Shown here piece after piece: positions 45,066 through 60,991 of a DNA stretch of 64,000 bases. Source of the DNA: Spirochaetaceae bacterium (lineage in GTDB: Bacteria; Spirochaetota; Spirochaetia; B11-G9); assembly GCA_015493635.1 (NCBI GenBank), contig WGCU01000077.1:23153-87152 (forward strand), written 5' to 3'. Position 1 is the first letter of the stretch. Each line of letters opens with the position of its first letter. The notes below the pieces were generated by a model. It did no database searches. It saw only the letters and a list, made by a program, of their open reading frames with translations, and had not been told where the DNA came from. The translations under genes were made by a program, and so were the position numbers.

Positions 45066-45545
45066 ATGCAGGTGGCGCTGATTATGGGATCAAAATCCGA
45101 CACGAAGAGTATGGCCCCCGCCGCTGAACTATTAAAGGATTTTGGAGTAAAGGCACGTTCCTTCATTCTCTCCGCCCACAGGGTACCGGAGAAGCTGGAG
45201 GAGGTTCTAAGGGAGCTGGAAAAAGAGGATACCGTCTGCATAATTGCAGGAGCCGGCCTAGCGGCGCATCTGCCCGGGGTTATTGCATCAAAGACGCTGA
45301 TCCCTGTTGTGGGGGTACCCCTGGATGTAAAGCTCGGAGGAATGGATGCCCTTCTCTCCATAGTCCAGATGCCCAAGGGAATACCCGTGGCAACGGTCGG
45401 GATAGGCAACTCGGTAAACGGAGCACTGACAGCACTGCAGTTTGCCGCCGCAGCTGATCCGTCTGTAAAAGAAAAACTGTCTGAATACAGAAAAAACATG
45501 AAAGAAAAATTTTTATCCGAAAACGGAGGGGAGATTACGTTATGA
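45066..45545 (+). CDS. purE: N5-CAIR mutase / AIR carboxylase
   Basis: [32 protein letters not shown]. Confidence 0.96.
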
Positions 45546-46258
45546 CAAAAGGGAAGATGATCTATGAGGGAAAGGCAAAACAGCTCTTTGAGACTGAAGA
45601 CAGGAACAAAGTACTGGTCTATTTCAAGGACGATGCCACTGCATTGAACGGAGCCAAGATGGCTCAGATTCACGACAAGGGAATTGTAAACAACAAGATT
45701 ACATCCATGCTTTTCAAGCTGCTGGAGAAAGAGGGAATTCCGACCCATTTTATCGATAGAATAAGCGACAGGGAACAGCTCTGCAGGAAAGTCGATATCT
45801 TCCCCCTTGAGGTAATTGTAAGGAACGTTGTTGCAGGGCACATGGCTGAACGTGTAGGGCTTCCCGAGGGAACGGAGATACCCAACACCATATTCGAGAT
45901 AAGCTATAAAAAGGACGAACTCGGAGATCCGCTTATAAACGATCACTATGCGGTAGCCCTGGGTGCGGCCACCTACGAAGAACTCAAAGAAATCTACGCC
46001 ATGGCCGGCAGAATAAACAAGATCCTTATCGATTTCTTTGCCACCCTGGGTTTGAGACTTGTGGACTTCAAACTCGAGTTCGGGAAGGACGAAGAGGGGA
46101 ACATTCTTCTTGCCGACGAGATAAGCCAGGACACGTGCAGACTGTGGGATCTTGAAACCGGGAAAAAGATGGACAAGGACCGGTTCAGAAGAGACCTGGG
46201 AGATCTGGAAGAGACCTACCGGGAAATTCTGAAACGTGTGGAGTCAAAGCTTAAATGA
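45542..46258 (+). CDS. purC: SAICAR synthetase
   Basis: [41 protein letters not shown]. Confidence 0.96.
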
Positions 46259-47622
46259 ACGACAAGATGGAGGAAGAATGCGGAGTTTTCGGGGTATTCG
46301 GAAGCTCCGGGGATGAAACTGCCAACCTGATCTATTCGGGACTCCTTGCCCTCCAGCACCGGGGGCAGGAGAGTGCCGGAATTTCCATCCAGACCGGTGA
46401 GAAGATAATAACCCGCAAAAGCATGGGACTGGCCAGCGAGGCTTTCAAGGCAGTAAATCCGGAAACCCTAACGGGAACATCCGGGGTCGGCCATGTAAGA
46501 TATTCAACATCAGGGGATAAAAGTCTTACCAACGCCCAGCCTCTGGTGGGACACTGCAAACTTGGGGACCTGGCAATAGCCCATAACGGGAACCTGGTCA
46601 ACGCGGATATTATACGGTCCCTTATGGAGGACGGAGGCACCGTTTTTCAGACAACCAGCGACTCCGAAATTCTGCTGAACCTGATATCCAGAGGAGCTTC
46701 CTCCGGGAGCTACGACAAGGCTATAAGGGAGGCTGCAAGTGCGGTAAAGGGATCCTACTCAACCATTATACTTACCGAAGACCGCCTTGCCGCAGTAAGA
46801 GACCCCTACGGGATAAGGCCCCTCTGTATCGGCAAACTGGGGGATATCTACATAGTATCCTCCGAGACCTGCGCCCTGGATGCGGTGGGAGCCGACTTTG
46901 TAAGGGACATTGAACCGGGAGAGCTGGTTTTCATAGACAAGAACGGAATCCACAGCGAGATAACGGGAAAGGGAAGTGAACAGAACACATGTCTTTTCGA
47001 GTACATCTACTTCGCCCGTCCTGACAGCGTAATAGACGGCATAAGTGTCTACAGGTTCAGGTACCAGAGCGGAATGGAGCTCTACAACGAACATCCGGTC
47101 AAAGCTGATGTAGTTGTAGGAGTTCCAGACTCCGGACTTGCTGCTGCCCTGGGTTATGCGGCAGCTTCCGGTATTCCCTTTACCCACGGACTAATAAAGA
47201 ACAAGTACAGCGGGAGGTCCTTCATCGCCCCCTCCAAACACTTAAGGGAGCAGACCGTAAACGTCAAGCTTAACGTACTTAAGGAAGAGGTAAATGGGAA
47301 GCGGGTTATTCTGATTGATGACTCTCTTGTCCGGGGAACTACGAGTAAAAAGCTGATCAAGTCTTTACGAAAAGCGGGAGCTGAGGAAGTGCACCTGGGG
47401 ATTGTTTCACCCCCGGTTACACACTCCTGCTACTTCGGAATAGACACCCCCTACAGAACCGAGCTTATTGCCGCGGGAAAGAGTACCGAAGAGATATGCC
47501 AGCTTATAGGTGCCGATTCTCTCTTCTACATTTCTCCCGAAGGTGTGCTGAAGTCCACGGGAAAAGAGAAGGGATTCTGCATGGGCTGTTTTAACGGGAT
47601 CTATCCCATGTCATACAGTTAA
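46255..47622 (+). CDS. purF: Amidophosphoribosyltransferase (propeptide, Fe-S type)
   Basis: [50 protein letters not shown]. Confidence 0.97.
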
Positions 47623-47631
47623 GAGGTAAAG

Positions 47632-48639
47632 ATGAGTAAAAACTACAAAGAGGCCGGAGTGGACAAGGAAGAGGGATACCGCTCCGTATCCCTTATGAAA
47701 GAGCACGCGGCCAAAACCGCAGACAGGAACGTTCTTGGCGGGCTGGGGAGCTTTGCCTCCCTGTACGCTCTTCCGGCTATGGAAGAACCTGTTCTGGTCA
47801 GCGGAACCGACGGGGTAGGCACGAAACTGGAGATTGCCCTTAAACACAGAGTTTACGATACAGTGGGAAAGGACTGTTTCGCCATGTGCGCCAACGACGT
47901 CCTGTGCCATGGGGCGAAACCCCTGTTTTTCCTGGACTACCTTGCCTGCGGGAAACTGGAAGCGGAGGTTGCATCGGAAATTGTAAAGGGGATCTCCGAA
48001 GCCTGCACAGAGGCACAGTGCTCCCTGGTCGGCGGAGAGACCGCCGAGATGCCCGGATTCTACCGGAAAGGAGACTATGACGTTGCAGGTTTCTGCGTCG
48101 GAGCAGTGGAACGGAAGAAAATAGTCGACGGTTCAAAGGTAAAAGAAGGTGATCTCCTTCTCGGGATCGAGTCCTCGGGCATTCACAGCAACGGATTCAG
48201 TCTGGTAAGAATGCTCTTCAAGAATATGGAGGCCGATTTTGAAGGCTCTCCCCTGTACAAGACCCTTCTTACCCCCACAACCTTATACGTTACGCCCGTT
48301 TTGAAGCTTCTAGGGCAGATTGATATCCGCGGAATGGCCCATATAACCGGCGGCGGACTTCCGGAGAATCTTCCAAGAACCATCCCCGAGGGTCTCGGCG
48401 TAAGGGTTGACAAGAGTTCCATACCCGTTCCTTCAATCTTCAAATACATTCAGGAACAGGGAGTGGAGGAAGAGGAGATGTGGAACACCTTTAACATGGG
48501 TATAGGATTTGTTCTTGTTATGGATCCTGCAGATTTTCAGACAGCCCGCAGGCTGCTTGAAAAAGAGGGGCTTGAATCCTTCGCAATAGGTTCTGTGGTA
48601 AAGACAAAGAATCCGGAGGAGAAGTTTTGCTTCGTATAG
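47632..48639 (+). CDS. purM: AIR synthetase
   Basis: YKEAGVD, SGTDGVGTK, GGETAEMPG, HSNGFSL, HITGGG, FNMGIG. Confidence 0.97.
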   Translation: MSKNYKEAGVDKEEGYRSVSLMKEHAAKTADRNVLGGLGSFASLYALPAMEEPVLVSGTDGVGTKLEIALKHRVYDTVGKDCFAMCANDVLCHGAKPLFFLDYLACGKLEAEVASEIVKGISEACTEAQCSLVGGETAEMPGFYRKGDYDVAGFCVGAVERKKIVDGSKVKEGDLLLGIESSGIHSNGFSLVRMLFKNMEADFEGSPLYKTLLTPTTLYVTPVLKLLGQIDIRGMAHITGGGLPENLPRTIPEGLGVRVDKSSIPVPSIFKYIQEQGVEEEEMWNTFNMGIGFVLVMDPADFQTARRLLEKEGLESFAIGSVVKTKNPEEKFCFV

Positions 48640-49211
48640 GGGTTCTCATATCCGGCGGAGGAACCAACCTTCAGGCGCTTATTGATGCCGTAGATGGGGG
48701 TATTCTGGATGCACGGATTACCAAAGTAATCGCCGACCGACCCGCCGGGGGGCTTAAAAGGGCAGCATCAGCGGGAATACCCGCCATTATGCTGGACAGG
48801 ACGATCTACGGAAAAGAGCTTTCCGAAAGGATTATGGAGGAGCTTAAGGGGGAAGCGGACATTGTTGTTCTTGCAGGTTTTCTGTCTATTCTGGGCAGCT
48901 CTTTTGTGAAAGCGTACAGGGGCAGGATAATAAACATCCACCCATCCCTGCTGCCATCCTACGGAGGTAAGGGGATGCACGGCATTCATGTACACGAAGC
49001 TGTTATAGCCGCAGGGGATAAGTACAGCGGCTGCACCGTTCACCTTGTGGAAGAGGGAGTGGATACGGGGAAGATTCTCGCTCAAAAAAAGGTAAGAGTA
49101 GTACCCGGCGACACCCCGGAAAGTCTTGCCAAGAGGATTCTTGAAGAGGAGCACTCCCTTCTCATATCCGCAGTCAAGAATATGGCAAAGAGCATGGAGG
49201 ATAAACAATGA
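48627..49211 (+). CDS. purN: GAR transformylase
   Basis: ISGGGTNLQA, LAGF, INIHPSLLP, GCTVH, VDTG. Confidence 0.96.
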   Translation: MLRIGVLISGGGTNLQALIDAVDGGILDARITKVIADRPAGGLKRAASAGIPAIMLDRTIYGKELSERIMEELKGEADIVVLAGFLSILGSSFVKAYRGRIINIHPSLLPSYGGKGMHGIHVHEAVIAAGDKYSGCTVHLVEEGVDTGKILAQKKVRVVPGDTPESLAKRILEEEHSLLISAVKNMAKSMEDKQ

Positions 49212-50455
49212 AGATAATGGTTCTCGGCAGCGGGGGGAGGGAGCATGCCCTTACCTGCGCCTTTTTAAAGAACAGAGATGTTGAAAAGATCTACTGCGTT
49301 CCGGGAAACGGAGGGACTGAGGATCTGGAGAAGTGTGAAAACGTAAACCTGAAGACAATCGACGGGATAGTCCGCTTTTGCCGGGAAAAGGGGATCGATC
49401 TTGCCATGCCCGGCTCCGAGGCTGCCCTTGTGAAAGGGATAGTGGACAGGTTGACTGAGGCAGGCATAAAAGCATTCGGACCGGACAGAAAAGCGGCCAT
49501 GCTTGAGGGAAGCAAGGCCTTTGCCAAGGATTTTATGAATAAGTACGGCGTCAGGACAGCAGGATACAGAAGCTTCAGCTCCTACAAAGACGCTCTCGGC
49601 TATCTTTCGGAATGTCCCTTCCCTGCAGTAATCAAGGCAGACGGCCTGGCAGCGGGGAAAGGGGTAATCATCTGCAGGAGAAGAGAAGAGGCGGAGGATG
49701 CTCTCAAGCTGATAATGGTTGACAAACACTTCGGCAGTTCCGGAGACAGGGTTGTTATAGAGGAGTTTCTCGAAGGCTTCGAGGCCTCGATCCACTGCTT
49801 TTTCGACGGCAAGACATTTCTGCCCCTTCTGTCGGCAAAGGACCACAAGAAGATAGGAGAGGGAGAGAGGGGCCCGAATACCGGTGGGATGGGGGTTGCT
49901 GCTCCTAATCCCGGGATGACAGATGAGCTCTGGGAGGACTTCAACAAAAATATCCTGGCCCCGACAAAAGAGGGGCTGCTGTCCGAAGGTTTGACCTTTC
50001 AGGGGGTTATCTTCTTCGGAGTTCTCGTTCAGAACGGCAGGTGCTATCTTCTGGAGTACAACATGAGGATGGGAGATCCCGAAACACAGGGGATGCTCTC
50101 CCTGCTGGATTCCGACTTTACAACCCTTGTTACCGGCACCCTCTCGGGGAAACTGGAAAATACCGAACTGAAGTGGAAAGAGGGTTGTGCTTGCTGCGTA
50201 GTTCTGGCATCTGAAGGATACCCCGGCACCTACCGGACAGGATACGAAATAAAAGGGATCACTCCGGATATATCATCCAACATATATATGGCGGGGGTAC
50301 AGAAAAAAGAGGGTCTCCCGGTAACCTCCGGCGGACGCGTTTTGAGCGTTACCGCCGTTGGATCAAACCTTGAAGAGGCCAGATCCCTCTGCTACCGGGA
50401 TGTCGAAAAAATCTCCTTTAAGGGGAAGACATTCAGAAAAGATATCGGCCTTTAA
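49208..50455 (+). CDS. purD: GAR synthetase
   Basis: GSGGREHA, LEGSKAFAK, KADGLAAGKGV, GPNTGGMG, RMGDPE. Confidence 0.97.
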   Translation: MKIMVLGSGGREHALTCAFLKNRDVEKIYCVPGNGGTEDLEKCENVNLKTIDGIVRFCREKGIDLAMPGSEAALVKGIVDRLTEAGIKAFGPDRKAAMLEGSKAFAKDFMNKYGVRTAGYRSFSSYKDALGYLSECPFPAVIKADGLAAGKGVIICRRREEAEDALKLIMVDKHFGSSGDRVVIEEFLEGFEASIHCFFDGKTFLPLLSAKDHKKIGEGERGPNTGGMGVAAPNPGMTDELWEDFNKNILAPTKEGLLSEGLTFQGVIFFGVLVQNGRCYLLEYNMRMGDPETQGMLSLLDSDFTTLVTGTLSGKLENTELKWKEGCACCVVLASEGYPGTYRTGYEIKGITPDISSNIYMAGVQKKEGLPVTSGGRVLSVTAVGSNLEEARSLCYRDVEKISFKGKTFRKDIGL

Positions 50456-50464
50456 TCAAAGCTC

Positions 50465-53400
50465 CTACAGGGGCTTTACGTTTATCTCCCCTTTTTTCAG
50501 GAACCCGATCCCTTCCACCGCCGCCCACGCTGCGGTGGTTGTTGTCGTATAGGGGATACTCCTTTTAAGAGCCTCTATACGGATGTCGTGGTCCCCCTTC
50601 TTGGCATATCCGCCCAGGGGGGTATTTATTAAAAGATCTATCCTGCCGCTTCTCAAATGGTCCACAACATTGGGGTTTCCTTCGTGGGTCTTCAGAATTA
50701 CCTCGGCAAAGATCCCGTTGTCGTAGAGGAACTGGGCGGTTCCTCTCGTCGCCGCAATTTCGAATCCCATATCCGCCAGTTTCTGAGCCGTCGGAAGGAT
50801 TGTCTCCCTGTCCTTGTCATGAACCGATATAAATACTCTGCCCTTTACGGGAAGGCTGTTCCCCACAGCTATCTGAGCTTTTGCGTAAGCCTCTGCAAAA
50901 GACTCTCCCATTCCTATTACCTCACCGGTGGACTTCATCTCCGGCCCCAGAAGGGGATCGATGTCGTTAAAACGGTCAAATGGGAACACGGCCTCTTTTA
51001 CTGCCCATCCGGTTTTACAGCTTCCCGAACCTGTTCCGCCGGATGTAAGCTCCTGGCTTTCCAGATCCTTACCGAGCCATACATTTACCGCCGCCTTTAC
51101 AAGATCAACTCCGCTTGCCTTCGAGAGAAAAGGAACGGTCCTGGATGCCCTGGGGTTCACCTCCAGAACGTACAACAGGTTGTCCTTTACGGCAAACTGT
51201 ATGTTGAGAAACCCCTTGACCTCCAGCTTCCGTGCAATCCTGACCGTTGCACTCTTCATCTCCTTCAGAATCTCCGGTGTCGATTTGAAGGGCGGGAAAA
51301 CACAGGCCGAGTCGCCGGAATGGATCCCCGCAGCTTCGATGTGCTGCATGATCCCCGCTATATAGACGTTCTTTCCGTCGCATACGGCATCGAGGTCGTA
51401 CTCAAAGGCATCTTCCAGAAACTGATCCACAAGAAGAGGAGATTCTTCGGAAAGCTGGACCCCGCTTTCAAGATAATCCAGAAGCTCCTCCCTGTTGTAG
51501 GCAATGTACATGCTCTTTCCGCCCAGAACGAAGGAAGGACGGAGGAGTACCGGATATCCTATCTCCGCGGCCCTGTCAAGGATGTCTTTTCTGTTTCCGG
51601 CCATAAGCCCCTTAGGCTGCCGCAGGGACAGGGCATTGACCATATTCGAGAAAGCCTCTCTGTCTTCAACCCTTGTAATACTCTCTATGGAGGTACCGAC
51701 AATCTCTGCACCCCACTTTTTAAGATCCTCCGCCACGTTCAGCGAGGATTGCCCGCCGAGCTGAACGACAATCTTCTTAGTCCCCTCTTTCTCCATTATG
51801 GCCTTGATACTCTCGGAGGTGACAGACTCCATGTACAGCCTGTCGGAAACGTTGAAGTCAGTGGAAACGGTCTCGGGGTTGGAGTTGACCATTACAGTCT
51901 TTACCCCGTTGTCCCGGTAGTTAAGGGAAGCAAGGGTACAGCAGGTATCGAACTCGAGTCCCTGGCCTATCCGGTTGGGACCGCTTGCCGCTATTACAAC
52001 CGCGCTCTCACCCATCCCCTTTGCCTCGTCGGCCTCGCCGAAGGTGGAGTAGAAGTACGGGGTTTTTGCCGCGAACTCTCCGGCACAGGTATCCACAAAG
52101 TGGAAAGACGCCTTTATTCCATGCTCTTCCCTTAACCCCTGCACTGCAGCCTCACCGATTCCCGTAACGCCTGAGATCTGCCTGTCCGACATTCCCGCTC
52201 TCTTTGCTTCGAGAAGAAGATCTTTGCTAAAGTCTTTTTCATTACCCGAAAGGGCTTCCAGCTTTTTTTCAAGATCAACGAGTTCCAAAAGGTTGTAGAG
52301 AAACCAGTAATCGTATCCGGTTTTTCCATGCACATCCTCTACAGCTTTCTCCCCTTCCCTTTTGAGGATGGTATAGGCACCGAAAATTCTTAAGGGATGA
52401 CGGGTGGAAACGATCTTCTCCAGAGCATCGCCTTCCTGATCCAGCGCCCCCAGCCCCTCGAACCCTGCTTCACAGGAACGGATTGCCTTGTTAAGGGCCT
52501 CGTTAAAGGTCCGCCCCAGAGCAAGGGATTCTCCCACAGATTTCATCTGTGTATTGAGCTCGGTATAGCCTCCGGCAAACTTTTCGATCTCAAACCTCGG
52601 CACCTTTACTGCACAGTAATCCAGGGTGGGCTCAAAACTCGAGACCGTTACTCCGGTTATGTCGTTCAGAATCTCATCCAGGGTGTATCCCACCGAAAGC
52701 CGGGCGGAACAAAGAGCGATGGGAAACCCCGTAGCCTTACTCGCCAGAGCCGAAGAGCGGGAAACACGGGGGTTCATCTCTATTATAACCCTCTTCCCGG
52801 TTTCAGGATGAACTGCAAACTGAACATTTGCCCCTCCGCAGTCAATTCCCACGGCTCTAAGCACCTTTATGGAGGCATCCCTCATTTCCTGATACTCGGT
52901 ATCCGAAAGGGTCTGGATGGGGGCTACGGTAATACTGTCTCCGGTATGAATTCCCATGGGATCCACGTTCTCTATGGAGCAGACAACAACGGCGTTATCC
53001 GCATGATCCCTCATAACCTCCATCTCGAACTCCTTCCATCCCAGAAGGGATTCCTCTATAAGCACCTCGTGTACGGGGCTGTCAAACAGCGCCTTTTTTA
53101 CCAGAGTTTCAAACTCCTCTTCACTCCTCGCTATGCTTCCCCCCTTGCCGCCCAGGGTAAAGCTTGGCCGGATAACCACCGGCAGTCCCCTCTTTTCCTT
53201 GAAGGCACAGGCCTCTTCGAAGGACCCGACGAGGATCGACTCGGGGCTCTTTTCCCCTATCTTTTCCACTACATCTTTAAAGCTTCCTCTGTCCTCTCCG
53301 GCCATTATGGACTCTACCGAAGCGCCGAGGACCTCGACCCCGTACTTTTTCAGAATATCCTGCCGGTACAGATCCAGAGTAAGGTTAAGCCCCGTCTGCC

Positions 53401-53674
53401 CTCCCATGGTCGGAAGGATTGCATCGGGCCTTTCCTTTTCTATTATCGCCTCGAGATACGGAACCTCCAGCGGCTGGGTATAGATCCTGTCCGCCAGCCC
53501 CGGGGTTGTCATTACCGTTGCGGGGTTTGGATTTACCAGAATAACCGTGTACCCTTCCGCCTTGAGTGCTTTTACCGCCTGGGTTCCGGAGTAGTCGAAC
53601 TCGCAGGCCTGACCAATTACAATAGGTCCTGATCCTGGAATAAGAATCTTTTTTATGTCTTCTCTCTTCGGCAT
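50465..53674 (-). CDS. carB: Carbamoyl-phosphate synthase large chain
   Basis: [41 protein letters not shown], duplicated ATP-grasp, MGS domain. Confidence 0.97.
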
Positions 53675-54819
53675 TACTTGTTCTCCGTGTTTTTAATTAT
53701 CTCATCGAAAATCCAAAGGGAATCGTGAGGTCCCGGAGCTGCCTCCGGATGTAACTGAGTAGTGATTATGGAAAGCTTTTTATGCTTCAATCCCTCTACG
53801 GTATTGTCGTTGGAGTTTCTCATCCAGACCTCTACATCCTCAGGCAGAGTCTCTTCGTCGATCATAAACCCGTGGTTCTGGGATGTTATCAGAACCTTAT
53901 CATTCTCCATGTTCCGTACCGGGTGGTTTATTCCATGGTGCCCGAACTTCATCTTTACCGTTTTGGCTCCCAGGGCAAGTCCTATTATCTGATGTCCGAG
54001 ACAGATCCCCGAAAGAGGGATCTTTCCTGCAAGATCCTTTACCTGATCAATTATGTGGGTAAGCACCGCGGGATCTCCGGGGCCGTTTGAAACAAGAACC
54101 CCGTCACAGCCGGTTGCCGTAATCTCCCGGGAGGTAAATGTTGAAGGTACCACAGTAACCCTGCATCCTCTATCAAGAAGGCTGCGGACTATGTTCTCCT
54201 TTATTCCGCAGTCCACCACAACAATATGGGGAGAGCCCTTTGGATTATACCCGGCCTTCTCCGTTGTCCCGGTTTCGGAAACCAGATTGCATCCCTCCAT
54301 GGAGGGGCAGGTACTTAAGAACGAAAGGGTCTTCCGCTTTTCATCATCCGAAAGAACCGGAGAATCCCCCCGGGGTCTTACAATAACTCCGTTGCAGCTT
54401 CCCTCGTCCCTGAGCTTAAGGGTAAGGCTCCGGGTATCTACACCGGTGATACCGCTTACTCCGTTGTCCGAAAAATACTTGTCCAACGGCATTCTTCCCC
54501 CCGGAACAGGTCCTTTATACAGAGAACGGACTATCATGGCAGAGAGCCCCGGTTTACCGTCCATGGACTCCGCCCACTTTAAGTCTACCCCGTAGTTCCC
54601 TATATGGGGATAGGTCATAACAACCATCTGCCCGGTATAGGAGGGATCTGTGGCTATCTCCACGTACCCGCTCATTCCCGTATTGAATACAACTTCACCG
54701 AACGGGATCTGATGCTTAAGGCTCAGATCTTCCACTAAAGGGGGAATAGCCCCGAAGGCCTCCCCGGCATAAGCCGTGCCGTCCTCCAGCACAAGAAAAC
54801 ATGGTTTATTCATGCCCAT
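53674..54819 (-). CDS. carA: Carbamoyl-phosphate synthase small chain
   Basis: [42 protein letters not shown]. Confidence 0.97.
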
Positions 54820-54891
54820 TACTATGAACTCTCCTGTAATTACTGTCAATATAAGAAGTTATGTAAAATTTTAATAGGTTTATCATTCAAT

Positions 54892-55953
54892 TTAATACTC
54901 CCCGTCCATACCCGCAAAGGGGTCGAAACCGTACTCATCGGCAGGGATCTTCACAGCCCCCGGATTCTTCTTAAAGGTATTCTTCTTAATTCCGAAGGCT
55001 TCTGTTATGTTGCTGAAGGTAAGATCTTCCAGGTCAGAATCCCCCAACCCTCTGCTTTTAAGAATCTCCATAAAAGTTCCGTAGAACTGGAGTACCGGAA
55101 TCCCTGAAAAGTTTTTAACCCTCTTTTCCTCCTCCGCATGGGGAGCATGGTCTGTCTCTATCCAGTCTATCCGGCCGTCCAGGAGAGCCTCAAACATCTC
55201 TTCCTGCATCCTCTTTTCCCTGAGAGGGGGATTTACCTTGAGAAGGATCCCGTCGGGGCCCTTCATGTCATCCACAGAGAGCAGCGCATGATGGGGAGTT
55301 ATTCCGCAGGTAACCCTGCAGGACAGCTTTTTCCGGCCATCCTCTATTACCTTCAGACTTTCCGGTACCGAGACGTGGCATATATGGAGAGTACCTTTGA
55401 ATCCTCTCTCCTGTGCCCACCTTATCTGATCCCTTACCGATTCAACCTCCGCTTCAGGCGGCCGGGCGGCAAGATGGGTTTCAGGCCTTTCGGGATCGAA
55501 CAAATCCGGCTTTTGAAGACTCTCCTTCTCGCAGTGAACCATAAGCACTCCGGTATAGTTCAGGGATGAGAGAATTTCAAAAACACTTCTCTGCCCGGCG
55601 GGCTCTGTAATTCCCATATTCCCTGTTGAGTGGCCGGCAAACATCTTCAAGCCAGCAACCGAGGGGAAGAGATCTTTCCATGCCTTTACTACCTCCGCTA
55701 TCTGTTCCGGATCAGGGGTAAGGCCTGCAAGAATCCCATGGAACAGAGGCAGGCCGAGTTTACTCAGGGCTTTTTCACCCTTCTCAAGCCTGGAGAGAAT
55801 AACATCTCTTGAAGTCAGAGGGGGATCGGTATTGGGCATCTCGAAAACACCGGAAAGCCCGCTTCTCCATGCAGTAAGAAAACCGTGCTCCATGGTCTCC
55901 TTGTGTTTCTGTGAAGTCCAGTCCCTTAGGTGGACATGGGGATCAATTCTCAT
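54892..55953 (-). CDS. pyrC: Dihydroorotase
   Basis: DPHVHLRD, EMPNT, HCE, TPHH, KVNPPLR, TDHAPH. Confidence 0.93.
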   Translation of the reverse strand: MRIDPHVHLRDWTSQKHKETMEHGFLTAWRSGLSGVFEMPNTDPPLTSRDVILSRLEKGEKALSKLGLPLFHGILAGLTPDPEQIAEVVKAWKDLFPSVAGLKMFAGHSTGNMGITEPAGQRSVFEILSSLNYTGVLMVHCEKESLQKPDLFDPERPETHLAARPPEAEVESVRDQIRWAQERGFKGTLHICHVSVPESLKVIEDGRKKLSCRVTCGITPHHALLSVDDMKGPDGILLKVNPPLREKRMQEEMFEALLDGRIDWIETDHAPHAEEEKRVKNFSGIPVLQFYGTFMEILKSRGLGDSDLEDLTFSNITEAFGIKKNTFKKNPGAVKIPADEYGFDPFAGMDGEY

Positions 55954-57652
55954 TCATCTCACTCCATTTAAACCAGGTTCCCTCTCTGCAGGTAAGATGC
56001 CCTCCGCACTCACACTCGCCGCAGAGGCCGACTCCGCACTTTGTGTGGGTCTCTATGGAAAGGAGAACATCATCGGCGCTTCCCCTTTCGGCGGTAAAGG
56101 CATAGGCAGCCTTCTCCATAAATGGCAGGGGCCCTATCGTATAAAGGGCGCAGCCTGCAGCGGAGATCCCGCCGTCAAAGGGAGAAGTATTCTCCCTCAG
56201 AGCTTCCATCATACGGTTTATAACCCTTCCCGCCTTTCCCCCGTCGGGAACTGCGGTGTAGCTGCCGAAGCCAAGGAAATCATCAGCCATCGCTTCCTGC
56301 CCCGGAGTACTCATTCCGTGAAAGGTATGAACACTCTTACCTTCGCCTGCAAACTTTTCAGCCAGCTTTAAAGCCGAGGCCAGTCCCGTTCCTCCCGCGG
56401 CGATCAGAACCGTTTCCTTGTCAGTCTCCGGAGCACTCTTACCGTACAGTCCCCTTACAAAGATCCTGTCCCCGGCCTCAAGCTCCATAACCCTGGATGT
56501 AAAAATCCCCTTCTTTTTAATAAGGAAGGTAAGAGGATCGCCGCTCATTATGGAAAAGGGTTTTTCTCCGGTTCCGGGAATCCAGAGGAAAGCGAACTGC
56601 CCTGCGTCGTACTTAATCTTTCCGTCAAGCTGAATAATCCTGACATCGCCGGGCAGATCCTTTATCTGCGTAACGGTATGGGGTTCGTACTTCATACCGC
56701 TGTCCGTTCTTTTCAGTCTTGAAGCACTGTCTCCCCCTTCGACAAGATCAGTCTTAAGGGATTTAAAGAAATCCTGCCAGTTCCAGGGTTCAACGGAGGC
56801 AAAGAGGGAGCCTATCCCCGCAACGTCTGCACCGGCGTTCATCATGTTCCTTACATCGTTTCCATTTTCGATTCCACCCATACCTATTATCGGGATATCC
56901 GGACCCAGGGCCTTCCGTATCTCCCCTACCTTCTCCAGGGCAGTCTCCTTTATCCACCTTCCGGACATCCCCCCCTTGTTGCCGCTGGCATTCAGCAGCA
57001 GGGGTGCTCCCGACACCGGTTCCGTATACAACCTGGGTCCCACAGTATTTATTGCAGTAATACCGTCCGCTCCTCCCTCTACCGCGGCAAGGGCTGTCTC
57101 CCCTATCGATTCCACGTTGGGAGTAAGCTTTGCAAAGACTAGGGCATCAGTCGACTTTCTTATCTCTATAAGGTAGGTATATACAACCTCCGGGTCCTTG
57201 CCTATGGCCATGCCGTATCCCCCGGTTGCATGGGGACAGGAGAGGTTCAGTTCGATTATGTCCGCAAGACCTTCAAAGTACTTTACCAGAGTTACAAACT
57301 CCTCCACACTGTTTCCTGATACCGAAACATTCAGGATTGAGCGCAGAGGCTTTTTTGAGATCATTTCCTCCAGCCCCTTCAGCCCCTCTTCCATTCCGGG
57401 GTTACGCAGACCTACCGCATTTCCGAAACTTCCCTCTTCGGGTTCTACAATAACCGGCTCGCGGTTACCCGGATTCGGCTTAACCTGAAAACTCTTGGTG
57501 GTTATAAGACCGATCTCCGGGATATCGTTATCCACCCTCCGGACCATTCCCGGGTTTGTCGTTACAACACCGGATACGGTGGCAAAAAAGGTGGAGCTGT
57601 TTACCGGATTATTGCCCTTTAAAAGTTCCAGAACTTTCTTCTTATCCATCAT
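55943..57652 (-). CDS. pyrD: Fused dihydroorotate dehydrogenase 1B catalytic subunit (PyrD) and electron-transfer subunit (PyrK)
   Basis: N-half: NAVGLRNPG, LNLSCPH, KLTPN, AINT, GGMSG. C-half: GQF, EKPFS, VRGLYG, AGGTG, KCGVGLCGEC...LTCREG. Confidence 0.9.
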   Translation of the reverse strand: MMDKKKVLELLKGNNPVNSSTFFATVSGVVTTNPGMVRRVDNDIPEIGLITTKSFQVKPNPGNREPVIVEPEEGSFGNAVGLRNPGMEEGLKGLEEMISKKPLRSILNVSVSGNSVEEFVTLVKYFEGLADIIELNLSCPHATGGYGMAIGKDPEVVYTYLIEIRKSTDALVFAKLTPNVESIGETALAAVEGGADGITAINTVGPRLYTEPVSGAPLLLNASGNKGGMSGRWIKETALEKVGEIRKALGPDIPIIGMGGIENGNDVRNMMNAGADVAGIGSLFASVEPWNWQDFFKSLKTDLVEGGDSASRLKRTDSGMKYEPHTVTQIKDLPGDVRIIQLDGKIKYDAGQFAFLWIPGTGEKPFSIMSGDPLTFLIKKKGIFTSRVMELEAGDRIFVRGLYGKSAPETDKETVLIAAGGTGLASALKLAEKFAGEGKSVHTFHGMSTPGQEAMADDFLGFGSYTAVPDGGKAGRVINRMMEALRENTSPFDGGISAAGCALYTIGPLPFMEKAAYAFTAERGSADDVLLSIETHTKCGVGLCGECECGGHLTCREGTWFKWSEMNEN

Positions 57653-58543
57653 CTACAGAAGACCTCCTGCCTCTTCGTTAAACCTGAGAAAGGCATCCAC
57701 ACATACTTCGTCCCAGTTCCGGGGCACCCCTTTCTTTTCTTTTACCCATGGATGAGTAATGGCACTCGAAACGTTTACCCGGATAAGGGGTGTCTCGTAC
57801 CGTACTTCTTTCATTATCCCCGCTACGTCGGAGAAACTCCCCCCCTGACTTCCCACTCCGGGGATGAGGAGAGGTATGTTTCTGCCTCCGAAAAGCAGGG
57901 CGAGATCCTTCAGTTCCTGTGGAGATGTGGCACCTGTTACGGCTCCGGTTCCGGGATACTTCCAGGCCCAGGAGATAATCTTTTCCCCAACCGCAGTAAA
58001 GAGCTTCTCTCCCCCTTTCGCAAGCCGCAGGTTCTGAAACTCCTTTCCGCCGGGATTAGATGTTCTGTCAAGAACATAGGCTCCGCCCCCCCGGCTTACA
58101 GCCTCTTTCAGGAAAGGCTCTACCGAATCGCTGCCCATGTAGGGCGACACAGTAACACTGTCGCATCCCCAGGAGACAAACCCCTCAAGGGCATAGTTTT
58201 CAGACGACCGGGCTATGTCGCCCCTTTTGTAATCCAGGATTACCGGGATATCCGGGAAGCTCTTCTCGATCAGGGAAAGTATCTTTGCCAGAGCAAGGGA
58301 ACCGGGGAACCTCCCCTGCCGGGGTCTGTCCAGACAGGAGAAGAAACCCAGATTGGGCTTGAATGCACCGGGCATTACGTTCTTCCTGATCAGTCCGGAA
58401 AGAATAGTTTCAAAAAAGGAGGTTATCCTCTCTTCCGTCTCCAACCCCTCACCGGGCAGGTAATCGGGTACAGGATCCAGTCCCATACAGAGAACACTTC
58501 CGCTTTTTTCTGCCGATACTTTCAGTTTATTTATGAAATCCAT
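57653..58543 (-). CDS. pyrF: Orotidine-5'-phosphate decarboxylase
   Basis: LCMGLDP, FKPN, LDYKRGDI, RTSNPG, VTGAT, PGVGSQGG. Confidence 0.95.
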   Translation of the reverse strand: MDFINKLKVSAEKSGSVLCMGLDPVPDYLPGEGLETEERITSFFETILSGLIRKNVMPGAFKPNLGFFSCLDRPRQGRFPGSLALAKILSLIEKSFPDIPVILDYKRGDIARSSENYALEGFVSWGCDSVTVSPYMGSDSVEPFLKEAVSRGGGAYVLDRTSNPGGKEFQNLRLAKGGEKLFTAVGEKIISWAWKYPGTGAVTGATSPQELKDLALLFGGRNIPLLIPGVGSQGGSFSDVAGIMKEVRYETPLIRVNVSSAITHPWVKEKKGVPRNWDEVCVDAFLRFNEEAGGLL

Positions 58544-59180
58544 TCTTCTCCCCCCATTCAAAGGGAGCCTTTCTCCACTCCCTCAAGCTTTCCAGATCTT
58601 TTTCCTCTATGTATCCGATTCTTTCAGCCTCCTGAATCAGCTCGTCGTAGGTAAAAATCGGAATTGTTCTGCAAACCGGGTCAAGGGATGCGAAGTTTTC
58701 GGACCCCTTATCAAGCCCGTAGTTGAATATGGAAAGGCAGTACTCTATATCCCCGTCAGCCTCTCTTATGGCTTTTACCGCCTCTATGGAGCTTCCCCCC
58801 GTCGAGACAAGGTCTTCTATAAGAACGACCTTTTTACCTTCGTACCCCTTGTCAGCAGGCAGCCCCTCGATCCTGTTCTTGAGTCCGTGAGCTTTAGGCT
58901 TACTCCGCACGTAGGTAAGGGGAAGATCAAGCTTGTCCGCCAGAGTTGTCGCATGGGGAATTCCCGCTGTGGAGGTCCCGGCAATGACGTCCGCTTCTAT
59001 ATGGTTTTCCTCCATTATGGAGATAAAGGCTTCTGCAATCATCGACCGGTATCTTTTCTCTTTAAGAAAGATCCTGTTGTCGTTGTACACCGGCATGTAG
59101 TATCCCGATGCCCAAAGGAAAGGCTCCTTCGTATTCAGCTTGAGAGCCTCTATATCAAGTATTGTCTTTATCAATTCCAA
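58527..59180 (-). CDS. pyrE: Orotate phosphoribosyltransferase
   Basis: PFLWASG...YNDNR, AGIP, YVRSKPKAHG, IEDLVSTGGS. Confidence 0.95.
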   Translation of the reverse strand: MELIKTILDIEALKLNTKEPFLWASGYYMPVYNDNRIFLKEKRYRSMIAEAFISIMEENHIEADVIAGTSTAGIPHATTLADKLDLPLTYVRSKPKAHGLKNRIEGLPADKGYEGKKVVLIEDLVSTGGSSIEAVKAIREADGDIEYCLSIFNYGLDKGSENFASLDPVCRTIPIFTYDELIQEAERIGYIEEKDLESLREWRKAPFEWGEKNGFHK

Positions 59181-60754
59181 ACCTCCCTGAAGGTATGTAC
59201 TTTTTCACAATAATCACACTTGAGGGTGTCTTCGGAAATCCTGGTAAACTCCGGCAGAACGTTCTCTTTGTGTGAAGGATGACTTATACAGTCCGGGTTT
59301 TTACAGCTCATGGATTCAAGGTTATAGACCCTCGGCGGCAGGCTGAGTCTCAGTTTTTTTACAATCTTGCCGTTTCCGATTACGTTCAGTGTGGCACCCG
59401 GGGCTATCGCCGCAAGCCTTTTTATGGTCGATTCATCCGGAGCCTCCGCTCCCGGCCGGAAGATAATTCCCTTCATTGTTCCGGGCTTCTCCTTGGAGGA
59501 TGATATCCACTCTCCCCCCTTACCAAAGAGCTTCATTACACGGATAATCCGCGACATATGCTCCCTTATCTCCTTCTCATCGTCTCCCCGGCATATATGA
59601 TCTATAACTATTCCGTTTGTTATAGGGTTGACCCCTTCGGAGTACCGCTTGGGAGTACGGCCGCTGCCGGCCTGAATTTCCTCTATAAACGGTTCCTCTT
59701 TTTCTTCCGGTTTTTCAAACTCCGCTTTAAAGTCATCTCCCAGTTTTCCCGAAACCAGACCGAGGAGAACAATCCTTACAAGCTTCCCGTTCATGGACTG
59801 CTCCTCCCATCCGTTAAGACTTGTGGAATCCAGAAAGGCCGGGATTGTGGGATGCTCTTTGTGCCGCGGGAGGGGATGGTAGAAGACCGTTCCTGATGGA
59901 ATCCTGTCCATATATTCCCGTTTAAAGGTTATCCTGGCCCTCAGGGAGTCGGCAATCTTCAGGATATCATCCCCCATTCTCTCCAGCTGAGGGCGGGTGA
60001 AGTACCATATACCTGCAATTTCTTTCTGCCCTAAATACTCCTCTATGGAACCGAAAACCCTAACCTTGTACCCCTTGGCCTCCATCTCTTTTTGGTAGTG
60101 ATCAGGCAAGGCCAGCTGAGGCGGAGCAACAAGATCAACGCTAACAGAATTAAAAACATTAAGCCCCTGTACTTTTGAATGTACAGTTCTGCCGTGAAAG
60201 AGGTCGCCTATCAAAGCTATGTGGATGGAAGACCGGTCCCCGTTCAGTTTTTCGAGAAAGGTAAACTCATCGAGAAGCTCCTGGGTGGGATGTTCATGCT
60301 TGCCGTCCCCGGCATTAATAAAAGAAGGCGGAACGTCCATACCGTTCCGCCCTGCAAATTCCCGTCCGTTTTTCTCAAGCCACCGGCACACGCCTTCCAG
60401 GCGGCTCCGTACTATAAAGACTGAATTGTCATAACCGGAAAGGGTATTGAAGGTATCGGCATAGCTTTCCTTTTTGTTTATTGACGAAGCGGATACGTCA
60501 AGATTACTCAGTTTAACCCTGTGAAACTCCGAAGCATTCTTGAAAGACTCCTTGGTCCTTGTACTGGACTCCAGGAACACCTCGTAAACACCGAAATCAC
60601 CGTTGTTGATACGGAAAGCTTCGAGCTTTTCCTTATTTTTCTCCTTAAGAAGTGCCTTCAACTCCCTTGTCTTTTCAAACAAGTACAGTCTCTCCTCCAA
60701 AGAGAAATCGGCTATTACCGTCAGCGACCGTCCCTTAAACCTGTTTTTTCCCAT
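59171..60754 (-). CDS. pyrB: Fused aspartate carbamoyltransferase catalytic and regulatory chains (PyrB-PyrI)
   Basis: ESSTRT, HPTQELLD, HPLPR; C-terminal GIVIDHI, CKNPDC, CDYC zinc site. Confidence 0.95.
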   Translation of the reverse strand: MGKNRFKGRSLTVIADFSLEERLYLFEKTRELKALLKEKNKEKLEAFRINNGDFGVYEVFLESSTRTKESFKNASEFHRVKLSNLDVSASSINKKESYADTFNTLSGYDNSVFIVRSRLEGVCRWLEKNGREFAGRNGMDVPPSFINAGDGKHEHPTQELLDEFTFLEKLNGDRSSIHIALIGDLFHGRTVHSKVQGLNVFNSVSVDLVAPPQLALPDHYQKEMEAKGYKVRVFGSIEEYLGQKEIAGIWYFTRPQLERMGDDILKIADSLRARITFKREYMDRIPSGTVFYHPLPRHKEHPTIPAFLDSTSLNGWEEQSMNGKLVRIVLLGLVSGKLGDDFKAEFEKPEEKEEPFIEEIQAGSGRTPKRYSEGVNPITNGIVIDHICRGDDEKEIREHMSRIIRVMKLFGKGGEWISSSKEKPGTMKGIIFRPGAEAPDESTIKRLAAIAPGATLNVIGNGKIVKKLRLSLPPRVYNLESMSCKNPDCISHPSHKENVLPEFTRISEDTLKCDYCEKVHTFREVWN

Positions 60755-60773
60755 ATATACTCCTATAAATAAT

Positions 60774-60887
60774 TTAAAAGGACAAAAAAAATACCGGCAA
60801 AAAAGCCGGTAAACAATTCACAAAAAAAGAGGAAATACCATCCCCATCAAAAATGATGTCTGGTTTTTTCCTCTTTTCTCTCTCCAT
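60774..60887 (-). CDS. Putative pyr leader peptide (37 aa) spanning two hairpin/U-tract elements
   Basis: ATG at 60887 lies just after the predicted start site; MEREKRKKPDIIFDGDGISSFFVNCLPAFLPVFFLSF*; ends 20 nt before the pyrB ATG. Confidence 0.5.
   Translation of the reverse strand: MEREKRKKPDIIFDGDGISSFFVNCLPAFLPVFFLSF
60784..60811 (-). terminator. Intrinsic terminator / attenuator in the pyrB leader
   Basis: Minus strand TACCGGC-TTTTTT-GCCGGTA followed by T8. Confidence 0.75.
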
Positions 60888-60898
60888 CTTGAAAAGAA

Positions 60899-60927
60899 AT
60901 TGTAAAGAATGTCGGGCAGGGTGTAAA
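60899..60927 (-). promoter_or_regulatory. Sigma70 promoter TTTACA-17-TACAAT for the pyr operon
   Basis: -35 at 60927-60922, -10 at 60904-60899. Confidence 0.65.
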
Positions 60928-60991
60928 GACCCTGCTCCCGATTTGGTTAAACTTTTTTGATTAATCTTGATCATCCCTGAATATTGCCACT

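Follow-up and report, generated by a model that had tools for sequence, protein, structure and literature searches.

What controls an operon for UMP synthesis that begins directly behind a transcription terminator? The question is raised by a 64,000-nucleotide stretch of DNA (the window) from a genome placed in Spirochaetia, with a completeness of 97.9%. An earlier note, made from the letters of the window, had proposed that a short leader ORF ahead of the operon acts as a translation-coupled UTP attenuator in a nonenteric lineage. Our analysis supports this proposal, in that the host belongs to Spirochaetia and the architecture is conserved; the sensing of UTP we infer. Judging from the sequences, we put at roughly 0.6 the probability that a ribosome-coupled attenuator sets the whole de novo UMP operon according to the supply of pyrimidine nucleotides.

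The pyrBI operon and its leader in the source genome

The operon comprises seven genes over 10.3 kb, in the order pyrBI-pyrE-pyrF-pyrDK-pyrC-carA-carB. The Shine-Dalgarno (SD) sequence at its head had been assigned to a pyrB-pyrI gene pair; the SD sequence is present, but the two genes are one fused ORF encoding both chains of aspartate carbamoyltransferase (ATCase). The fused product scored 790.4 bits against the model NF009916 (cutoff, 800) and contains four Pfam ATCase domains (OTCace_N, OTCace, PyrI, and PyrI_C), three of them above the cutoffs, with OTCace at 28.5 bits against a cutoff of 29.4. Scores under the curated cutoffs were obtained for the dihydroorotase-like protein and for the pyrD-pyrK fusion, and PyrE scored under the cutoff of NF001729 and over that of TIGR00336. 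The coordinates of the operon and its leader are collected in Table 1.

TABLE 1 Features of the pyrBI leader and operon in the window
Feature	Position	Strand	Remarks
-35 hexamer TTTACA	60922..60927	-	Promoter match, 10/12
-10 hexamer TACAAT	60899..60904	-	17-nt spacer from -35
Pyrimidine-rich stretch TTCTTTTCAAG	60888..60898	-	Sequence from -10 box to ATG
Leader ORF	60774..60887	-	37 codons plus TAA (60776-60774); ATG at 60887-60885; peptide MEREKRKKPDIIFDGDGISSFFVNCLPAFLPVFFLSF; no SD
Purine-rich opening GGAGAGAGAAAAGAGGAAAAAA	60864..60885	-	5' arm of hairpin 1
Hairpin 1, long, imperfect	60822..60880	-	14-bp outer stem including the U7 tract
U7 tract	60822..60828	-	Within U-rich region
Terminator hairpin TACCGGC-UUUUUU-GCCGGUA	60792..60811	-	-12.1 kcal/mol; 6-nt loop
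U8 tract of terminator	60784..60791	-	Sequence
SD AGGAG of pyrBI	60760..60764	-	Read from the sequence
pyrBI, fused (catalytic plus regulatory chain)	59171..60754	-	527 aa; ATG at 60754
Operon remainder after pyrBI	50465..59180	-	Genes overlapping or at most 42 nt apart
pyrE	58527-59180	-	
pyrF	57653-58561	-	
pyrD-pyrK fusion	55943-57652	-	
pyrC (dihydroorotase-like gene)	54892-55953	-	
carA	53674-54849	-	
carB	50465-53674	-	

The leader elements described in the earlier note are all found on the minus strand. The near-consensus promoter is the best of five promoter-like sites in 1.1 kb, for which shuffled sequences yield 1.8, and a near-consensus promoter stands at the equivalent relative position in relatives. 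The leader ATG follows the -10 box by 11 nt and lacks an SD sequence. The transcript probably starts at an A residue of CAAG, giving a 5' untranslated region of about 3 nt; in the closest relatives, CAAG-ATG or CAAT-ATG lies 9 to 11 nt past the -10 box. A search for sequencing runs covering the 1-kb stretch listed 17, all of them DNA runs. The single ORF of 37 codons does cross both hairpins, spanning hairpin 1, the terminator hairpin, and the U8 tract, and its opening is indeed pyrimidine poor, with 87% purine and 3% T in the first 30 nt. Pfam contains a family for the enterobacterial PyrBI leader; the 37-aa leader peptide matched no Pfam family at E values up to 10.

Both hairpins are likewise present, the long one running into U7 and the second one, TACCGGC/GCCGGTA, into U8. 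On folding, the 146-nt leader RNA reached -41.7 kcal/mol (z = -3.9), which was equaled by none of 200 shuffles. The U8 tract ends only 30 nt ahead of the pyrBI ATG, which leaves no space for a further promoter. Hairpin 1 minus its A/U extension is itself terminator-like, with an inner stem of -17.3 kcal/mol followed by the U7 tract, and from its sequence it is likely a pause element or a first attenuator. In a tandem variant of the arrangement, specific to the source genome, two terminators would act in succession, hairpin 1 with U7 and then the second hairpin with U8, masked by a ribosome on codons 3 to 8 and on codons 26 to 32, respectively. This would fit the strength of the inner stem with TTTTTTT directly after it, the location of the 5' arm of hairpin 1 within the leader ORF, and the rank of hairpin 1 as the top terminator of the region in one scan (it was also listed by a second). 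Against this, no more than a small GGGGGA...UUUCCCC hairpin, trailed by an interrupted U tract, is found in the closest relatives, and other clades have none; the U7 tract could equally be a pause site like the hairpin pause of pyrL. We regard the tandem variant as possible but doubtful. Folding of the part ahead of the terminator across leaders revealed no general pause hairpin or antiterminator (z < -2 in 5 of 33; mean z, -0.57), and the long hairpin 1 is restricted to the source lineage and is no general feature of the leaders.

Conservation of the leader ORF without a conserved peptide

When the regions upstream of pyrB were compared among relatives, as the earlier note had suggested, the architecture proved to be conserved in most Spirochaetia loci in which the operon begins with pyrBI. 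Directly 5' of pyrBI, these combine a promoter and a short ORF with a U-rich tract and a strong terminator. In a first set of 64 related loci, 36 had a terminator within 110 nt ahead of pyrBI, and 31 of these had an ORF that began with ATG 45 to 125 nt ahead of the terminator stem, comprised at least 16 codons, and ended at most 15 nt ahead of the stem or later; dinucleotide shuffles gave an expectation of 11.5, and none of 200,000 simulations reached 31. This definition was fixed after the first set had been viewed and was applied unchanged to a second set of 61 new, nonredundant metagenome loci, which is the only clean test: 43 had a terminator and 38 of these had the ORF, with 14.2 expected. 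P values from these loci overstate the evidence, since the loci are related rather than independent and only the second set was cleared of near-duplicates.

Further counts were made on 79 nonredundant related loci with a terminator at most 110 nt ahead of pyrBI. A short leader ORF ending at most 13 nt ahead of the terminator stem, or later, was found in 74 of them, with its start codon at a median distance of 73.5 nt from the stem (interquartile range, 70 to 80). The stop codon lies 1 to 13 nt ahead of the stem in 29 of the 74 loci. The same tendency was seen when any stop position was allowed: an ATG preceded by a 5-nt SD core is present in 40 of the 79 loci, and none of the 40 resulting ORFs stops before position -12 (counted from the stem), 31 of them stopping between -12 and +13. 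A point against attenuation by a coupled ribosome is that, with stops at -13 to -9, a terminating ribosome would cover no more than a few base pairs at the beginning of the stem.

The near-leaderless start of the ORF had been considered unusual. This view does not hold among the relatives, where it is one of two interchangeable forms: 51 of the 74 leader ORFs are preceded by an SD sequence, 18 have a TANNNT motif 6 to 12 nt before the start codon (leaderless type), and 5 have neither. Of the 22 starts listed as leaderless type, the majority are also accompanied by a -35 box at 16 to 18 nt.

The peptides differ from clade to clade. The closest relatives retain the leader nucleotides but have the ORF in a different frame; one clade has three 3-nt indels within the ORF, and two further clades have 4-nt and 1-nt indels, with the ORF still reaching the terminator. 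The leader ORF is thus maintained without a conserved peptide.

Could the leader have no regulatory role at all? The ORF might be a small, independent gene that carries a terminator of its own, or the hairpins might end the upstream oxidoreductase gene, with pyrBI being transcribed from elsewhere. The leader promoter is a prediction, and any small gene would look like an ORF running up to a terminator. Only 16 to 87 nt (median, 24) separate the end of the terminator from the pyrBI ATG in the 79 loci, however, and with so short a gap pyrBI would be left without a promoter of its own. What is conserved is the position beside pyrBI and not the peptide; the genes upstream vary by locus, while promoter, ORF, and terminator move along with pyrBI; and leader and terminator are both missing where pyrBI directly follows another gene (10 of 21 loci). 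An absence of regulation appears highly improbable to us.

Inspection by eye revealed neither leader nor terminator at six of seven unfused pyrB genes of other Spirochaetia (L034 to L040), where the upstream sequence leads directly into pyrB; in L039, the 5' end of the gene lies outside the locus. Fused pyrBI loci from outside the spirochaetes, including that of Fervidobacterium, had no terminator near the gene. Within the source genome, no such leader was found upstream of pyrG, a uracil/xanthine permease gene, or two upp-like genes. A CCGG core occurs in the terminator stems of 53 of the 79 loci and in 37 of 154 terminators from the source genome, which we read as common ancestry of the leaders rather than as a binding site.

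U-richness ahead of the terminator

The 30 nt ahead of the terminator stem have a T fraction of 0.41 in both locus sets, compared with 0.21 to 0.24 at positions -80 to -51 (paired Wilcoxon test, p about 1e-6 in each set). As a control, 154 terminators of the source genome average 0.28, among which the pyrBI leader, with 60% T, ranks second. Some leaders are modestly U-rich or not U-rich, with, for instance, 0.20 in L062 and 0.27 in L051 and L052. Another very U-rich terminator of the source genome, on contig C47, was set aside, as it merely trails the end of a gene.

The composition bears on the nature of the signal. The leader ORF might attenuate transcription in response to something other than UTP, such as translation capacity, ribosome availability, or an amino acid, with the U-richness as a by-product. 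What the comparison displays directly is the ORF, the terminator, and the ribosome-loading site, and the link to UTP comes from base composition and the analogy with pyrL. Against a signal of this kind, the genes under control are those of the UMP pathway, and the bias is specifically for U, lies just ahead of the terminator, and exceeds that of the 154 control terminators. No run of a single codon is common to the peptides. In addition, the stops that precede the stem lie within 13 nt of it, versus more than 20 bp in amino acid attenuators, which also require an antiterminator, as described in PMC4824070. We hold a signal other than UTP to be quite unlikely.

PyrR and other possible sensors

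The earlier note had seen neither pyrR nor a PyrR RNA motif, and we found neither in the genome or the window. The genome has 11 matches to the phosphoribosyltransferase family PF00156, none of which is PyrR; the four of PyrR-like length correspond, according to NCBIfam, to Hpt, Apt, and two proteins with weak matches to purine phosphoribosyltransferase models. Among 41 related genomes, the PyrR model NF003549 scored above the cutoff in one, and this genome has just a weak, nonfused match to the PyrBI query (E = 9.8e-6).

Might the terminator nevertheless be controlled by a trans-acting RNA-binding protein or a small-molecule riboswitch, the ORF being incidental? The sequence alone would be compatible with some further regulator, and the PyrR RNA family RF00515 does match the leader weakly (21.1 bits; E = 3), over its entire length. 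That score is far under the gathering score of 54 bits, and a scan of 20 related loci gave no Rfam family at its gathering score. All Rfam matches obtained in the window with a permissive E-value cutoff were below the family thresholds; those to rseX (27.1 bits versus 50), a plastid psbA 3' untranslated region family, microRNA families, and PyrR were rejected as chance matches driven by the terminator or the long hairpin. The 76 leaders searched have no shared k-mer besides SD and U-rich words and no PyrR-like core, for which we used what we take to be the PyrR-binding core motif. The structure ahead of the terminator is not conserved, the PyrR model passes its cutoff only in the one of 41 genomes mentioned above, and a protein or riboswitch would give no reason for the retention of the ORF, of its loading signal, and of its stop position. 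Control of this type strikes us as improbable.

Comparison with known attenuators

Termination in E. coli falls from about 90% to less than 10% when a stop codon is located 5 bp before a terminator, and the effect is lost beyond 27 nt (PMC4824070). At pyrL, polymerase pauses under UTP limitation on a transcript with 49% U, and a coupled ribosome blocks the terminator (PMC10135430). The spirochaete leader resembles pyrBI-pyrL of E. coli and Salmonella in several respects, with the E. coli mechanism as described in PMC10135430, PMC5021804, and PMC4824070: the same enzyme is regulated with no repressor protein; a promoter, a U-rich leader, and an intrinsic terminator stand just before pyrB; and the leader ORF runs into or through the terminator, which a closely coupled ribosome could block. 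In contrast to pyrL, with which there is no sequence relationship, the spirochaete peptides differ even among themselves. Their ORFs are shorter, with a median of 27 codons (37 in the source genome) versus a leader gene of 135 bp in E. coli (PMC4824070); where they stop 1 to 13 nt before the stem they do not pass through it; and a leaderless-type start is found in the source genome and 17 other loci. The lineage is Spirochaetia, and the operon governed has seven genes, including carAB. The spirochaete leader is best read as an attenuator that senses UTP through a coupled ribosome, as pyrL does, but has no homology to pyrL.

The initially transcribed region of E. coli pyrBI, AATTTG, undergoes UTP-sensitive reiterative transcription (PMC7039003, PMC6524683), a type of control that also operates at upp and codBA and calls for at least three T residues immediately past the start site. 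Three distant relatives (L023, L062, and L066) are similar in having a -10 box followed after 6 nt by AATTT-ATG, with predicted start sites. The likely start of the source genome, CAAG-ATG, differs, with a T run before it and none after it. NTP-dependent choice of the start site, raised in the earlier note, may occur at this leader.

PyrR attenuation, as in Bacillus and many other bacteria, likewise places a terminator in the pyr leader and presumably answers to a pyrimidine nucleotide, but the spirochaete lacks pyrR, a PyrR-binding RNA, and the antiterminator/anti-antiterminator arrangement. In attenuators of the trpL/hisL type, a translated leader ORF likewise governs formation of the downstream terminator; unlike these, the spirochaete peptides have no regulatory codon runs, there is no conserved alternative hairpin, and the stop is at the terminator, not more than 20 bp before it as in the systems covered by PMC4824070.

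Proposed mechanism

The combination of leader, U-rich stretch, and terminator is seen in dozens of related genomes, and the leader therefore probably adjusts the operon to the UTP supply in the manner of E. coli pyrL, without being related to it in sequence. In the ribosome-coupled attenuator that we favor, the predicted start site, leader translation, pausing, and UTP signal would work together as follows. Transcription would begin a few nucleotides ahead of the leader ATG, and RNA polymerase would pass the purine-rich opening and then the U-rich stretch (in the source genome, the hairpin and U7). With ample UTP, polymerase would outrun the first ribosome, the terminator (60811-60792) with its U8 tract would fold, and transcription would stop 30 nt ahead of pyrBI. 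With little UTP, polymerase would linger over the U-rich stretch, and the ribosome on the leader ORF would catch up with it. Because the leader ORF ends at or past the foot of the terminator, this ribosome would cover the 5' arm of the hairpin, which would then fail to fold, with read-through into the operon as the result. We know of no demonstration of close ribosome-polymerase coupling in spirochaetes.

A bolder version, which we think unlikely, would make the leader a Spirochaetia-wide UTP sensor of an origin separate from that of enterobacterial pyrL, with interchangeable SD-led and leaderless forms and with AAUUU-AUG coupling initiation to attenuation. Where a leaderless form begins with AAUUU-AUG, its 5' end would gain U residues by UTP-dependent reiterative transcription, which would lead to aborted transcripts, and the added residues would also impair leaderless initiation on transcripts that escape. 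The five-nucleotide element would thus feed the UTP level into initiation and attenuation alike. In this version, the leader family would also be a natural reporter of close ribosome-polymerase coupling in spirochaetes.

Significance

The literature searched on pyrL-type control, all of it concerned with E. coli and other gammaproteobacteria, yielded no pyrL-type leader in spirochaetes. The leader described here would be a nonhomologous counterpart of pyrL, conserved over many Spirochaetia families, and would place all seven genes of the UMP pathway under one leader in a lineage where PyrR was not found. The mechanism is open to testing, since the carriers include the named isolates Sphaerochaeta sp. 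S2 and PS; the Sphaerochaeta loci L052 and L053 have SD-led leaders. The use of the same device with an SD or a leaderless start would offer a compact natural system for relating the mode of ribosome loading to coupling. The leader further implies that the first ribosome can match the pace of RNA polymerase in these bacteria.

Leader and operon in the window

The leader before pyrBI lies on the minus strand, and a reading of the sequence, a promoter scan, and an ORF check found all of the elements that the earlier note had described from the sequence alone. Its promoter matches the consensus at 10 of 12 positions and is the top one of five promoter-like sites in 1.1 kb (shuffled sequences gave 1.8). 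The terminator is of textbook form. In the hairpin preceding it (hairpin 1), the purine-rich opening pairs with UUUCCUCUUUUUUU to form the outer stem, so that the U7 tract is included in the stem. Folding of the RNA, which the earlier note had proposed as a check, gave -41.7 kcal/mol for the leader (z = -3.9), and none of 200 shuffles was equally stable.

Features of the leader, the pyr operon, and the facing genes (window coordinates)
Feature	Position	Strand	Remark
Imperfect GC-rich inverted repeat GGGAGCAGGGT...ACCCTGCCC	60913-60940	minus	flanks leader -35 box
-35 box TTTACA	60927-60922	minus	followed by 17-nt spacer
-10 box TACAAT	60904-60899	minus	
TTCTTTTCAAG		minus	between -10 box and leader ATG
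Leader ORF start ATG	60887	minus	no SD
Leader ORF, 37 codons (MEREKRKKPDIIFDGDGISSFFVNCLPAFLPVFFLSF)	stop TAA 60776-60774	minus	
Upstream-extended leader frame, 66 codons	60774-60974	minus	ATG 60974
Hairpin 1 (long hairpin)	60880-60822	minus	
Terminator TACCGGC-UUUUUU-GCCGGUA	60811-60792	minus	followed by U8
SD AGGAG, then pyrBI ATG	ATG 60754	minus	
pyrBI (pyrB-pyrI fusion, 527 aa)	59171-60754	minus	
pyrD-pyrK fusion, 569 aa	55943-57652	minus	pyrK, electron-transfer subunit of pyrD
Plus-strand ORF block	45542-50455	plus	converges on carB end
Amidophosphoribosyltransferase-like (purF) gene, 455 aa	46255-47622	plus	within ORF block

The leader frame stays open as far as an ATG that lies ahead of the predicted promoter, which would be relevant only with read-through transcripts from the upstream gene. 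The inverted repeat around the -35 box lacks a U tract and lies 50 nt past the stop codon of the oxidoreductase gene upstream.

The gene after the leader is a single fused ORF rather than the separate pyrB and pyrI genes of the earlier note. It is followed by pyrE, pyrF, the pyrD-pyrK fusion (a second fusion within the operon), a dihydroorotase-like gene, carA, and carB; adjacent genes overlap or are no more than 42 nt apart. From this gene content, the leader heads a 10.3-kb operon for the entire route to UMP, including carAB.

Conservation of the leader ORF

The best PyrBI matches are from Spirochaetia (Spirochaeta, Sphaerochaeta, Treponema, and Alkalispirochaeta), mostly metagenome-assembled genomes with two named isolates. 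We collected the regions upstream of fused pyrBI at 64 loci. The first source, 41 related genomes, supplied 21 of them (one more, with its 5' end missing, was left out); the second, the best 46 genome-contig loci (L042-L087), supplied 43 (three 5'-truncated ones were left out). A terminator no more than 110 nt upstream of pyrBI, itself preceded by sufficient sequence for testing, was found in 36 of the 64. Where none was found, pyrBI typically lies directly behind another gene (10 of the 21 loci of the first source).

We counted ORFs with an ATG and at least 16 codons, starting 45 to 125 nt before the terminator stem and ending at most 15 nt short of it or further downstream; the expectation came from dinucleotide-shuffled versions of the 130 nt that precede the stem. 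With these criteria, picked after inspection of the first set, an ORF was present in 31/36 loci compared with 11.5 from the shuffles. None of 200,000 simulations reached 31, and since the relatives are not independent, such p-values overstate the evidence. A metagenome scan gave a second set of 80 loci, 77 of them with full upstream sequence and 61 after removal of near-duplicates. Under the unchanged criteria, 43 of the 61 had a terminator and 38 of these 43 had the ORF (14.2 expected). At least one of the 18 loci scored as terminator-less, L125, does have a leader and terminator, placed further upstream because of an insertion. The ORF enrichment is large in effect size and was replicated, and the arrangement in the window recurs in the comparison of pyrB upstream regions that the earlier note had suggested.

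Across all 79 loci with a terminator (both sets), an ATG or GTG ORF of the leader kind is present in 74 (median, 27 codons). Its start codon is a median of 73.5 nt upstream of the stem (interquartile range, 70 to 80), and a median of 24 nt separates the end of the terminator from the pyrBI ATG. The stop codon precedes the stem by 1 to 13 nt in 29 loci, falls within the hairpin in 24, and lies past it in 21, the lower limit being partly set by the criterion. We therefore recounted without a stop condition: 40/79 loci have an ATG preceded by a 5-nt SD core between -125 and -20 (negative positions count upstream of the stem). None of these 40 ORFs ends before -12, and 31 end between -12 and +13.

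The stems themselves contain CCGG in 53/79 attenuators versus 37/154 terminators of the window's own genome, frequently in the form UCGG...CCGG, where a U-G pair is conserved, which suggests common ancestry of the leaders across Spirochaetia families.

Open frame and ribosome loading

Leader peptides are unrelated from clade to clade. The closest relatives (L013, L014, L127, and L042) keep the nucleotides AAGAGGAAA...CCNGAC...ATTTCC with parts in another frame. One clade has three separate 3-nt indels within the ORF; in two others, 4-nt and 1-nt indels alter the C-terminal peptide and the ORF still extends to the terminator. What these leaders keep is an open frame that extends from the loading site as far as the terminator, rather than a protein. 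In one clade (L021, L045, L139, and L148), DLGP(R/T)V(F/S) occurs in leader peptides that otherwise differ.

An SD precedes 51 of the 74 leader ORFs; another 18 have a TANNNT hexamer 6 to 12 nt before the start codon, and the remaining 5 lack both. Most of the 22 leaderless-type starts listed also have a correctly spaced -35 box. The window leader is of this type (hexamer, no SD), and in its subfamily CAAG-ATG or CAAT-ATG lies 9 to 11 nt past the -10 box, which would imply a 5' untranslated region of about 3 nt. As both types occur, the near-leaderless start, which the earlier note had taken for an oddity, is one of two interchangeable solutions. The pyrG gene (CTP synthase; locus L122, plus strand, around 39570-39620 of C84 in the same genome) is apparently leaderless too, with TTGCTA-17-TATAAT, 8 nt, and the ATG of MRKYIFVTGG without an SD. 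This genome may have many leaderless starts.

Three distant loci (L023, L062, and L066) have a -10 box, 6 nt, and AATTT-ATG. The same five bases occur in the initially transcribed region of Escherichia coli pyrBI, where UTP-dependent reiterative transcription takes place (PMC7039003, PMC6524683). The leader in the window differs in that its T run precedes the likely start instead of following it.

Searches for PyrR and for RNA families

The earlier note had seen neither a PyrR RNA motif nor pyrR, and our searches agree. The Rfam PyrR family scored 21.1 bits on the leader against a threshold of 54, no Rfam family reached threshold in 20 related loci, and a PyrR core motif was absent from 76 leaders. 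No PyrR was found among the 11 matches to the phosphoribosyltransferase domain in the genome (97.9% complete). NCBIfam scans of the four with PyrR-like length identified Hpt and Apt, while the remaining two gave only weak scores with purine phosphoribosyltransferase models. The other seven, judged by eye from length and sequence, are PRPP synthetases, PurF, PyrE, Upp, and a ComF-like protein. The PyrR model scored above the cutoff in one of the 41 related genomes, whose PyrBI match is weak and nonfused.

Proposed attenuation mechanism

The long hairpin that the earlier note placed before U7 is present and strong in the window (z = -3.25 for the pre-terminator part), but it is not a general feature of the family: among 33 leaders, pre-terminator folding had a mean z of -0.57 and z < -2 in 5. 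Its inner part plus U7 is terminator-like on its own (-17.3 kcal/mol). In this genome, hairpin 1 may be a hairpin-stabilized pause site or a first attenuator, and a ribosome at codons 3 to 8 would open it.

U content increases toward the terminator: in 31 leaders, the T fraction is 0.18 at -80 and 0.53 at -20. Both sets (36 and 43 loci) have 0.41 in the 30 nt directly ahead of the stem, compared with 0.21 and 0.24 between -80 and -51 (paired p of about 1e-6 per set, from relatives that are not independent). The 154 terminators found in the genome average 0.28; the window leader, at 0.60, ranks second of 154, behind an ordinary gene-end terminator. Certain leaders are not U-rich (0.20 to 0.27).

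In E. coli, ample UTP leaves the polymerase ahead of the ribosome and transcription terminates in pyrL; with scarce UTP, pausing of the polymerase on a transcript with 49% U allows the coupled ribosome to block terminator folding (PMC10135430, PMC5021804). Termination fell from about 90% to <10% with a stop codon 5 bp upstream of a terminator, with no effect beyond 27 nt, and amino acid attenuators have >20 bp between stop and terminator (PMC4824070). In contrast to the latter, the spirochaete stops sit in the range of direct ribosome action on the terminator. No conserved alternative hairpin was found in the 33 leaders folded before the terminator.

The leaders do not appear to belong to the pyrL sequence family, as the leader peptide has no match in Pfam and the peptides are not conserved. 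The pyrL literature examined concerns E. coli or other gammaproteobacteria. Full-text searches, which reached few subscription journals, gave no account of such a leader in spirochaetes, so an earlier mention is possible. From the stop positions, the absence of an alternative hairpin, the U-richness, and the pyrimidine genes downstream, we consider it rather probable (about 0.6) that the spirochaete leaders work like pyrL.
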